The notes under the pieces were generated by a model, which ran no database searches, was not told the DNA's origin, and worked only from the letters and a program-made list of their open reading frames with translations. 16,731 bases of DNA, taken from IMG/VR virus record IMGVR_UViG_2576861133_000011. One strand, given 5' to 3'. Source of the DNA: a virus (lineage: Duplodnaviria; Heunggongvirae; Uroviricota; Caudoviricetes). The position numbers and the translations under genes were made by a program. This document shows positions 4,853 through 5,059 of the stretch, in pieces (within the stretch, counting starts at the first letter, position 1; the number at the start of each line of letters is the position of its first letter).

Positions 4853-5059
4853 TTAGTGATTCAGGCCGTTGCCGCGTCCGTCGAGAAAAACTTCCACGAG
4901 CAAATCACGGGTATAAGTGCGCTCGATGCCGCGATGCAGATAAAGCCGTCCGCGTAAATTAGCTGATGCAGTCCAGGTACCATCTTTGTGTTTGACCAGC
5001 ATTCCTGGCATGACCGCACCGCGATTAACGGTCTGCGTTCCGTAATGTTGATGAACCAT
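4853..5059 (-). CDS. Hypothetical small basic protein, 68 aa, first ORF of the PL operon (ORF-track version 4853..5143 is probably over-extended)
   Basis: The internal ATG at 5059 is preceded by AGGAG with 5-nt spacing. The longer 96-aa start at 5143 has a poorly spaced GAGG. Sits where lambda has kil/cIII/N, but no arginine-rich motif or other match is recognised. Confidence 0.45.

Follow-up and report, generated by a model that had tools for sequence, protein, structure and literature searches.

Introduction

KilR, encoded by the Rac prophage of Escherichia coli K-12 (b1352, 73 aa), is the founding member of its protein family and has been studied since 1996. It blocks Z rings, a block that is rescued by FtsZ (PMC12482147, PMC5793797), and it mislocalises MreB and co-localises with overproduced MreBCD (PMC12482147). 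Its structural model comprises a β-core flanked by 7 and 12 residues that are unstructured; the C-terminal tail is essential for toxicity in a length-dependent manner, activity dropping as the tail is shortened (PMC12482147). When the last three residues are removed, the division block is kept and the effect on MreB and cell rounding is lost, the cells showing rod shape and normal MreB localisation; for the elongation effect these three residues are needed whatever their identity (PMC12482147). The Kil protein of phage lambda needs ZipA and leaves MreB undisturbed (PMC12482147).

Here we describe a kil locus in a stretch of DNA of 16,731 nucleotides from a phage of the class Caudoviricetes (IMG/VR record IMGVR_UViG_2576861133_000011; the whole stretch is referred to as the window). 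An earlier note on this DNA had singled out a 68-aa ORF as an unrecognised small basic protein and guessed at a division inhibitor. The gene is in fact an ordinary, already annotated and already known kil of the Rac type. It has taken the place of the lambda gene of the same name at a sharp module boundary, and its leader carries a conserved RNA element.

Genomic context

The DNA belongs to a lambdoid prophage that is inserted beside icd, and the window covers its left arm and immunity region. The minus strand encodes int and xis, a number of small genes, and then exo, bet, gam and kil, followed after a gap of 595 nt by a CI-like repressor; the plus strand encodes cro, a YdaT-like gene at the position of cII, O and P. 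An inverse autotransporter and IS66-family elements come next. The features around kil are as follows.

3013-3693, minus strand: exo, downstream of bet
3690-4475, minus strand: bet, downstream of gam
4481..4777, minus strand: gam in its 98-aa form, the next gene of the operon (Pfam Gam, E 4e-63)
4853..4859, minus strand: module junction, where identity to lambda ends at TCACTAA, the last His codon and the stop codon common to both kil genes
4853..5059, minus strand: kil ORF of 68 codons (ATG 5059-5057, stop TAA 4855-4853)
5065..5069, minus strand: Shine-Dalgarno AGGAG, read directly from the sequence, followed by TTTTT and the ATG (5-nt spacing)
5337..5365, minus strand: putative pL promoter read from the sequence, TTGACG (5365-5360), 17 nt, TTAAAT (5342-5337), with a start near 5330
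5350..5379, minus strand: operator-like inverted repeats AACAAC/GTTGTT, overlapping the -35 element
5516..5533, minus strand: intrinsic terminator of the repressor transcript from the terminator scan, CCCGGTCACCGTGCCGGG then TTTTCTTTTG, upstream of pL
5655..6344, minus strand: CI-like repressor with HTH and S24 peptidase domains (Pfam HTH_3, Peptidase_S24; RefSeq CDS of 690 nt)
6692-6704, plus strand: perfect boxA, CGCTCTTTAACAA, between cro and the YdaT-like gene

A scan for strict consensus promoters did not call pL. A 30-nt block of this region, GTTGTTGAC.A.AAAACAAC.ATAGTTTTAA, recurs on the pR side (6392-6422), and the operator motif is likewise present at pR (6386-6410); we infer that the block at about 5337-5379 on the minus strand, which is paralogous to pR, represents pL and its operators. 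About 270 nt separate it from the kil ATG downstream, and the CI-like repressor would hold it off in a lysogen. The earlier note had placed the ORF first in the pL operon, and for this lineage that placement holds, since the window contains no N gene and since, between the putative pL and ATG 5059, the terminator scan returned no terminator-like site and no other ORF has coding support.

By eye, no boxA consensus is seen in the pL leader, and no boxB-like hairpin after the boxA at 6692-6704. A 31-aa ORF with a TTG start and an arginine-rich stretch, RGVRGVKRTRERR (VKRTRERR), which recalls the RNA-binding motifs of N proteins, lies in the pL leader on the minus strand (5168-5263), in frame with the 96-aa ORF discussed below; the TAG codon that separates the two is absent from relatives. 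This ORF was considered as a remnant or miniature form of N; Shine-Dalgarno, homologues, a PHROG match and boxB are all absent, and it is probably due to chance.

Several features of the surroundings are recorded here in their own right. The YdaT-domain gene at the cII position (6749-7288) represents Rac-like immunity content and the left arm is lambda Red; the prophage is clearly a mosaic. Phage PhiR47_2 (L003, 3141-4569) carries a two-gene insert annotated as GevT/GevA (toxin/antitoxin) at the equivalent of window positions 5610-5613, exactly between the stop codon of the repressor and the repressor terminator; the lysogenic transcript seems to have a hotspot for cargo at this point. Lambda has rexAB in the corresponding position. 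The inverse autotransporter (intimin/invasin-like, 1556 aa, 9252-13922) directly follows gene P and has several near-identical internal repeats of about 120-170 aa each; strain 4/1-1 has a shorter copy in RefSeq (4266 nt), suggesting variation in repeat number. Further on, the IS66-family accessory ORF has its first 53 codons twice, 247 nt apart (14068-14229 and 14315-14740), a partial tandem duplication, and the ORF of the IS66 transposase extends past the end of the window.

The gene and its family

The length of the 68-codon ORF is by itself no evidence of coding, because the window contains 116 ORFs of at least 40 aa. Comparison with 21 homologues from other enterobacterial genera yields dN/dS values of 0.03-0.17 wherever dS is computable (pN 0.08-0.20, pS 0.56-0.81), the synonymous sites being near saturation. 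Met1 is common to all 35 of 35 aligned relatives (67-74 aa), and in most diverged loci the similarity at the DNA level starts at ATG 5059 or within a dozen bases of it. By these measures of the sequence, the ORF is a real gene under strong constraint. Both the position of the ORF and its AGGAG at 5-nt spacing, as the earlier note had given them, were confirmed; the protein (7.7 kDa) is basic as described there, with a pI of 10.1 and a net charge of +3.9, and residues 1-25 contain no arginine-rich motif, again in agreement.

What did not hold is that the protein is unrecognised. RefSeq has a CDS at identical coordinates, WP_000233576.1, named "phage encoded cell division inhibitor protein"; the protein matches PHROG 294, "Kil protein for bacterial septation inhibition", at E 1e-37 (profile positions 13-80 of 83), and Rac KilR matches the same profile at 7.5e-35. 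With K-12 KilR, BLASTP aligns 61 residues at 36% identity (E 9e-13); when the proteins are aligned jointly, identities amount to 34% to KilR, 42% to phi80 Kil, 38% to HK639 gp41 and 85% to HK225 gp37. In NCBI and UniRef, relatives are named "cell division inhibitor protein" or "Prophage Kil protein"; the precomputed Pfam assignment PF27398 is found, among the matches listed, on 120 of 120 relatives; a Pfam-A search of the protein itself gave no match, in a copy of the database that did not include PF27398. The protein is thus almost certainly a member of the KilR family. It scores 63.1 bits (E 1.8e-17) against the NCBIfam model of KilR, NF008465 ("FtsZ inhibitor protein"), and misses the curated cut-off of 92 bits; it therefore belongs to a sister subfamily and is not a KilR equivalent in NCBI's sense. 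The homology to a characterised family is clear, and the role of that family is not an unrelated one but the one that had been guessed, division inhibition.

The KilR-type family is small, as a profile search of 1.84 billion representative proteins gave only 81 clusters at E up to 0.001, and 23 of 25 recovered genome loci are from Enterobacteriaceae. The gene is nevertheless neither unrecognised nor rare, because RefSeq and PHROG name it and because a 2.1-kb stretch around kil is present at a coverage of at least 80% in 1356 of 5426 complete E. coli genomes; among E. coli genomes, the subfamily of 68 aa occurs far more often than the Rac allele that has been studied. A near-identical arrangement is present in phages PhiR34_1 (99.1% identity) and Turner (99.0%), whose genome records give laboratory strains of E. 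coli as hosts. Two metagenome-assembled genomes with other labels also carry kil, a 'Bacillota bacterium' (L006) with 100% protein identity and an 'Atopobium sp.' (L015) with 85%; these contigs are most likely mis-binned enterobacterial prophage DNA.

Replacement of the lambda kil module

Positions 2665-4859 of the window are 96.7% identical to lambda 31000-33193, covering orf63, orf60a, exo, bet and gam. The start of the long form of Gam (lambda 33232) lies outside the shared DNA (window 4778-4859 region), so that only the 98-aa form can be encoded here. The two Kil proteins themselves show no similarity: BLASTP of the 68-aa protein against the 47-aa lambda Kil returns no alignment at E up to 100, and lambda Kil belongs to PHROG 3924/2461, the window protein to PHROG 294. 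Searches of Pfam, PHROG and NCBIfam likewise gave no match to the lambda N family, nor, at E up to 1, to the cIII family, and the statement of the earlier note that the protein is not recognisably N, cIII or lambda Kil is borne out. Judged from the alignments, the kil gene here is of the Rac type, not of the lambda type, and replaces lambda kil together with everything from cIII to N, the junction falling inside the last codon. This swap of two unrelated kil genes at a common last codon would represent a clean functional replacement at a module boundary.

A conserved RNA element in the leader

The leader between pL and kil contains an element that recurs in other lambdoid phages. Its two main hairpins are followed by a variable spacer, GCGCAGAAGUCUUGU, and a short hairpin that abuts the Shine-Dalgarno of whichever gene follows.

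5114..5177, continuing to the Shine-Dalgarno, minus strand: leader RNA element, consisting of CAUACC, hairpin 1 (5146-5172), UUAUGACAACC and hairpin 2, GGCGG-CCAUCCA-CCGCC (5118-5134)
5070..5084, minus strand: third hairpin, GCCC-AGCUUAC-GGGC, seen by eye, abutting the Shine-Dalgarno
5060..5143, minus strand: in-frame upstream extension from ATG 5143-5141 giving a 96-aa ORF, judged to lie outside the protein

The element of the window matches the covariance model with 86.8 bits. Hairpin 1 covaries, with 7 of its 11 pairs changing on both sides and at least eight stem variants; across both hairpins, 95.6% of cells are paired, as against 30-48% when the partners are slid, and none of 500 shuffles reaches 95.6%. 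Hairpin 2 is invariant in sequence, an invariance that is partly biased because the instances in viral contigs were collected with an exact 26-mer; diverged copies that were found independently keep hairpin 2. The stems of the third hairpin vary by lineage (GCCC/GGGC, CGCG/CGCG, GCC/GGC) and, by eye, always stand right before the Shine-Dalgarno of the following gene.

More than 100 viral contigs also carry the element, as do HK225, HK639 and phi80, in which it follows N and lies between tL1A and tL1B; there are copies at 2483-2545 in L031, 2504-2566 in L032, 2504-2567 in L033, 2765-2828 in L027 and 3504-3567 in L028. Directly 5' of it, nearly all other phages have an intrinsic terminator, whereas the lineage of the window has none there. 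In 96 of 126 instances, a gene of the KilR family is found no more than 1.3 kb downstream. Across many lambdoid phages that are otherwise mosaic, the module follows the post-N terminator and precedes the opening gene of a block that usually includes kil. In phi80 (L032, from about 2636 onward), an unannotated ORF starting MSDLELGLKIYALWFVG... with a good Shine-Dalgarno lies downstream of the element; it overlaps the annotated Rho-dependent terminator tL1B, and the same ORF heads the block in several viral contigs.

In lambda, the covariance model finds a weak match (17.9 bits, hairpin 1) at 33475-33521, just upstream of cIII. This hairpin we take to be the tL2b terminator of the tL2 cluster; tL2a is placed between ral and ea10 (PreS preprint). 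CAUACC, hairpin 1 (apical CGCUUCAC.GAGGCG) and GUUAUG are recognisable in it, and it likewise stands ahead of a block, cIII-kil-gam. Lambda, however, has a U run after the hairpin, in the manner of a terminator, and then directly the Shine-Dalgarno of cIII; it lacks hairpin 2 and the long spacer. The U run of the window is interrupted (UUAGUUAU).

Searches for known RNAs were negative within their respective scopes. Rfam gave nothing relevant in the region 4400-6800 at E up to 1, and a literature search by the leader sequence or by the peptide MTTGGHPPP found no paper. By blastn-short, the leader has no match to HK022 putL (supplement of PMC9378689) or to the putL-like RNA of HK639; the put signature, ACGGCGCG...UAAACCAUGCGUCGG...GGCGGG.UCAGGA, was not found just downstream of pL by this sequence comparison. 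Nor is the leader similar to the DNA ahead of Rac kilR, KilS sRNA included. As a whole, the 265-nt leader folds no more stably than shuffled sequence (z 0.07). A role of the leader as a Rho-loading (rut) site was considered and is a weak idea, the ratio of C to G being only 1.2-1.7 and falling to 0.4-0.6 in the first half.

The roughly 120 nt between the pL leader and the start of kil (about 5060-5180) may, as one tentative reading that we regard as possible but rather doubtful, constitute a cis-acting RNA module, so far undescribed, that belongs to the early-left operons of lambdoid phages and might gate a toxic gene by attenuation, processing or translational control. The element may work as a leaky terminator, as a site of processing or by controlling translation, and the conserved leader might attenuate the expression of kil; if this is true, then in this lineage without N nothing but the RNA module would stand between pL and kil.

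The conservation of this stretch also bears on where the protein begins, since public gene calls for the locus disagree, with versions of 68, 83, 95, 96, 104 and 128 aa. The true product might be the longer protein from ATG 5143 (96 aa in the window, 128 aa in relatives that lack the TAG at 5167-5165), the 68-aa form then being merely an internal start. The 96-aa frame is open in the window, many of the public calls use longer forms (95, 96, 104, 128 aa), and ATG 5143 together with the following 26 nt is almost invariant across phages; this conservation, however, acts on the RNA or DNA and not on a peptide, the few changes being non-synonymous (T to I or N, P to S or T) and one relative (L029) keeping hairpin 2 even though its peptide has changed completely. 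In other lineages the upstream DNA is read in all three frames, which stop after 15-40 codons; no Shine-Dalgarno was found at a workable distance from ATG 5143, the nearest GAGG being paired inside hairpin 1; and RefSeq picks the start at 5059. For most of the diverged kil genes, as well as for KilR, homology begins at Met1 of the short form, which has the strong Shine-Dalgarno. We consider the longer product very unlikely, and exclude the extension from the protein because homologues begin at the Met1 of the short form, most of the diverged loci lack similarity upstream of it and the frames vary; at the level of sequence, these comparisons support the 68-aa start over the longer public calls. 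A reading of ATG 5143 as the start of a leader peptide with a PPP stall is disfavoured as well: the variation is non-synonymous and the downstream frames differ.

Predicted structure and the C-terminal tail

AlphaFold2, run with 35 sequences, predicts the 68-aa protein with a pLDDT of 85.3 and with strands at residues 8-12, 20-24, 27-35, 38-43, 46-50 and 54-59; confidence is low at residues 1-7 and 60-68, the latter forming a disordered tail. The predicted fold is thus a small β-barrel, with a core of six strands and a flexible C-terminal tail, in line with the model published for KilR (PMC12482147). A sequence search of the PDB matched no solved structure, and a fold search against solved structures gave nothing significant, the best hits being SH3/KOW-like barrels such as eIF5A (E 0.17 or worse); in BFVD, the fold search returned one significant match, an uncharacterised 73-aa protein of a Pantoea phage (TM 0.81).

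The tail of the window protein, DGRGNGLNH (9 residues), is three residues shorter than that of KilR, GRDGLPVKAESW, and differs from it in sequence. Its length equals that of the KilR truncation by three residues, which still blocked division. In view of this shorter tail and the phenotype of the truncation, the window protein may, by analogy, be an inhibitor of division only; its naturally short tail offers a ready test of the published separation of FtsZ and MreB effects by tail length.

Proposed function

A literature search found no report of a functional test on a member of the 68-aa subfamily. By homology, the course of events could be pictured as follows. In the lysogen, the CI-like repressor with its HTH and S24 peptidase domains would keep pL closed; inactivation of the repressor, presumably through self-cleavage stimulated by RecA, would let pL fire and the leader of about 270 nt would be transcribed, kil being translated first, from its strong Shine-Dalgarno, and then gam, bet and exo. 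Kil, acting as KilR does, would block the formation of Z rings, so that induced cells would filament while the phage replicates and recombines. That the protein inhibits host division through FtsZ is, by analogy with KilR, probable; the identity to KilR of just 34-36%, the score below the NCBIfam cut-off and the differing, shorter tail, which in KilR is the active region, count against it.

The protein may act exactly as Rac KilR does, inhibiting both FtsZ and the MreB elongation machinery, in which case a high dose would yield round or lemon-shaped cells and not plain filaments. The shared family, the shared predicted architecture and the effects of KilR on MreB described above (PMC12482147) speak for this, but the tail lacks the length of the last three KilR residues that the elongation effect requires, and with a core identity of about 35% the targets could differ; we hold such dual action to be possible, though on the doubtful side. 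A further reading concerns not the target but the occasion: kil may have been selected in the lysogen as a stress-triggered growth brake that benefits the host, a role proposed for Rac kilR under oxidative stress, switched on by reduced Rho/NusG termination and not by prophage induction. In K-12, OxyS lowers NusG, with read-through into kilR, division arrest and better recovery from H2O2 as the outcome (PMC5793797), and the arrangement found here is, as noted, very common among E. coli genomes. Yet in this lambda-like operon about 270 nt separate the gene from a pL that appears to be under repressor control, read-through from the repressor gene should be stopped by an intrinsic terminator, near-identical copies are present in sequenced phages, and the leader differs from the region upstream of Rac kilR, KilS included, in sequence and has only a mild excess of C over G. 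A brake of this kind is accordingly unlikely in our estimation. A protein that is small, basic and encoded first after pL might, finally, be a regulator of phage development standing in for N or cIII; the family searches gave no similarity to either, the arginine-rich motif is absent, no boxB-type hairpin is seen beside the sole boxA, and the homology is clearly to a family with a different, tested role, making this reading very improbable. Division inhibition through FtsZ thus remains the reading that we prefer.

Comparison with known kil loci

Lambda kil occupies the same slot as the kil gene of the window. Both genes end in CAC-TAA just upstream of gam, both would be transcribed from pL (putative in the window), and both proteins are expected to inhibit FtsZ. 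In lambda, however, N, sieB, ral, ea10 and cIII lie between pL and kil, none of which is present in the window.

KilR of Rac is the relative by descent: it aligns with the window protein from Met1, falls into the same PHROG, has the same predicted architecture and shares FtsZ as the expected target, and kilR, too, precedes recombination genes in the early-left operon of its lambdoid prophage. These genes differ, as Rac kilR is followed by ydaE-racC-recET and the kil of the window by the lambda Red genes gam-bet-exo. The kil of the window, moreover, stands directly behind its putative pL, with a leader that is unlike that of Rac and contains no KilS-like sequence.

The kil genes of phi80 (PHI80_42), HK639 (gp41) and HK225 (gp37) are of the same family, and in their early-left operons, too, the conserved leader element lies upstream of kil; the location near recombination genes is comparable in Rac and in all three. 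Whereas phi80 has an N gene and HK639 the put RNA, with other early genes besides, the lineage of the window is without these. In the three phages an intrinsic terminator (tL1A in phi80) precedes the element, and kil is placed further down the operon, behind N or other genes and this terminator; in the window, by contrast, transcription from the putative pL would run straight into the element.
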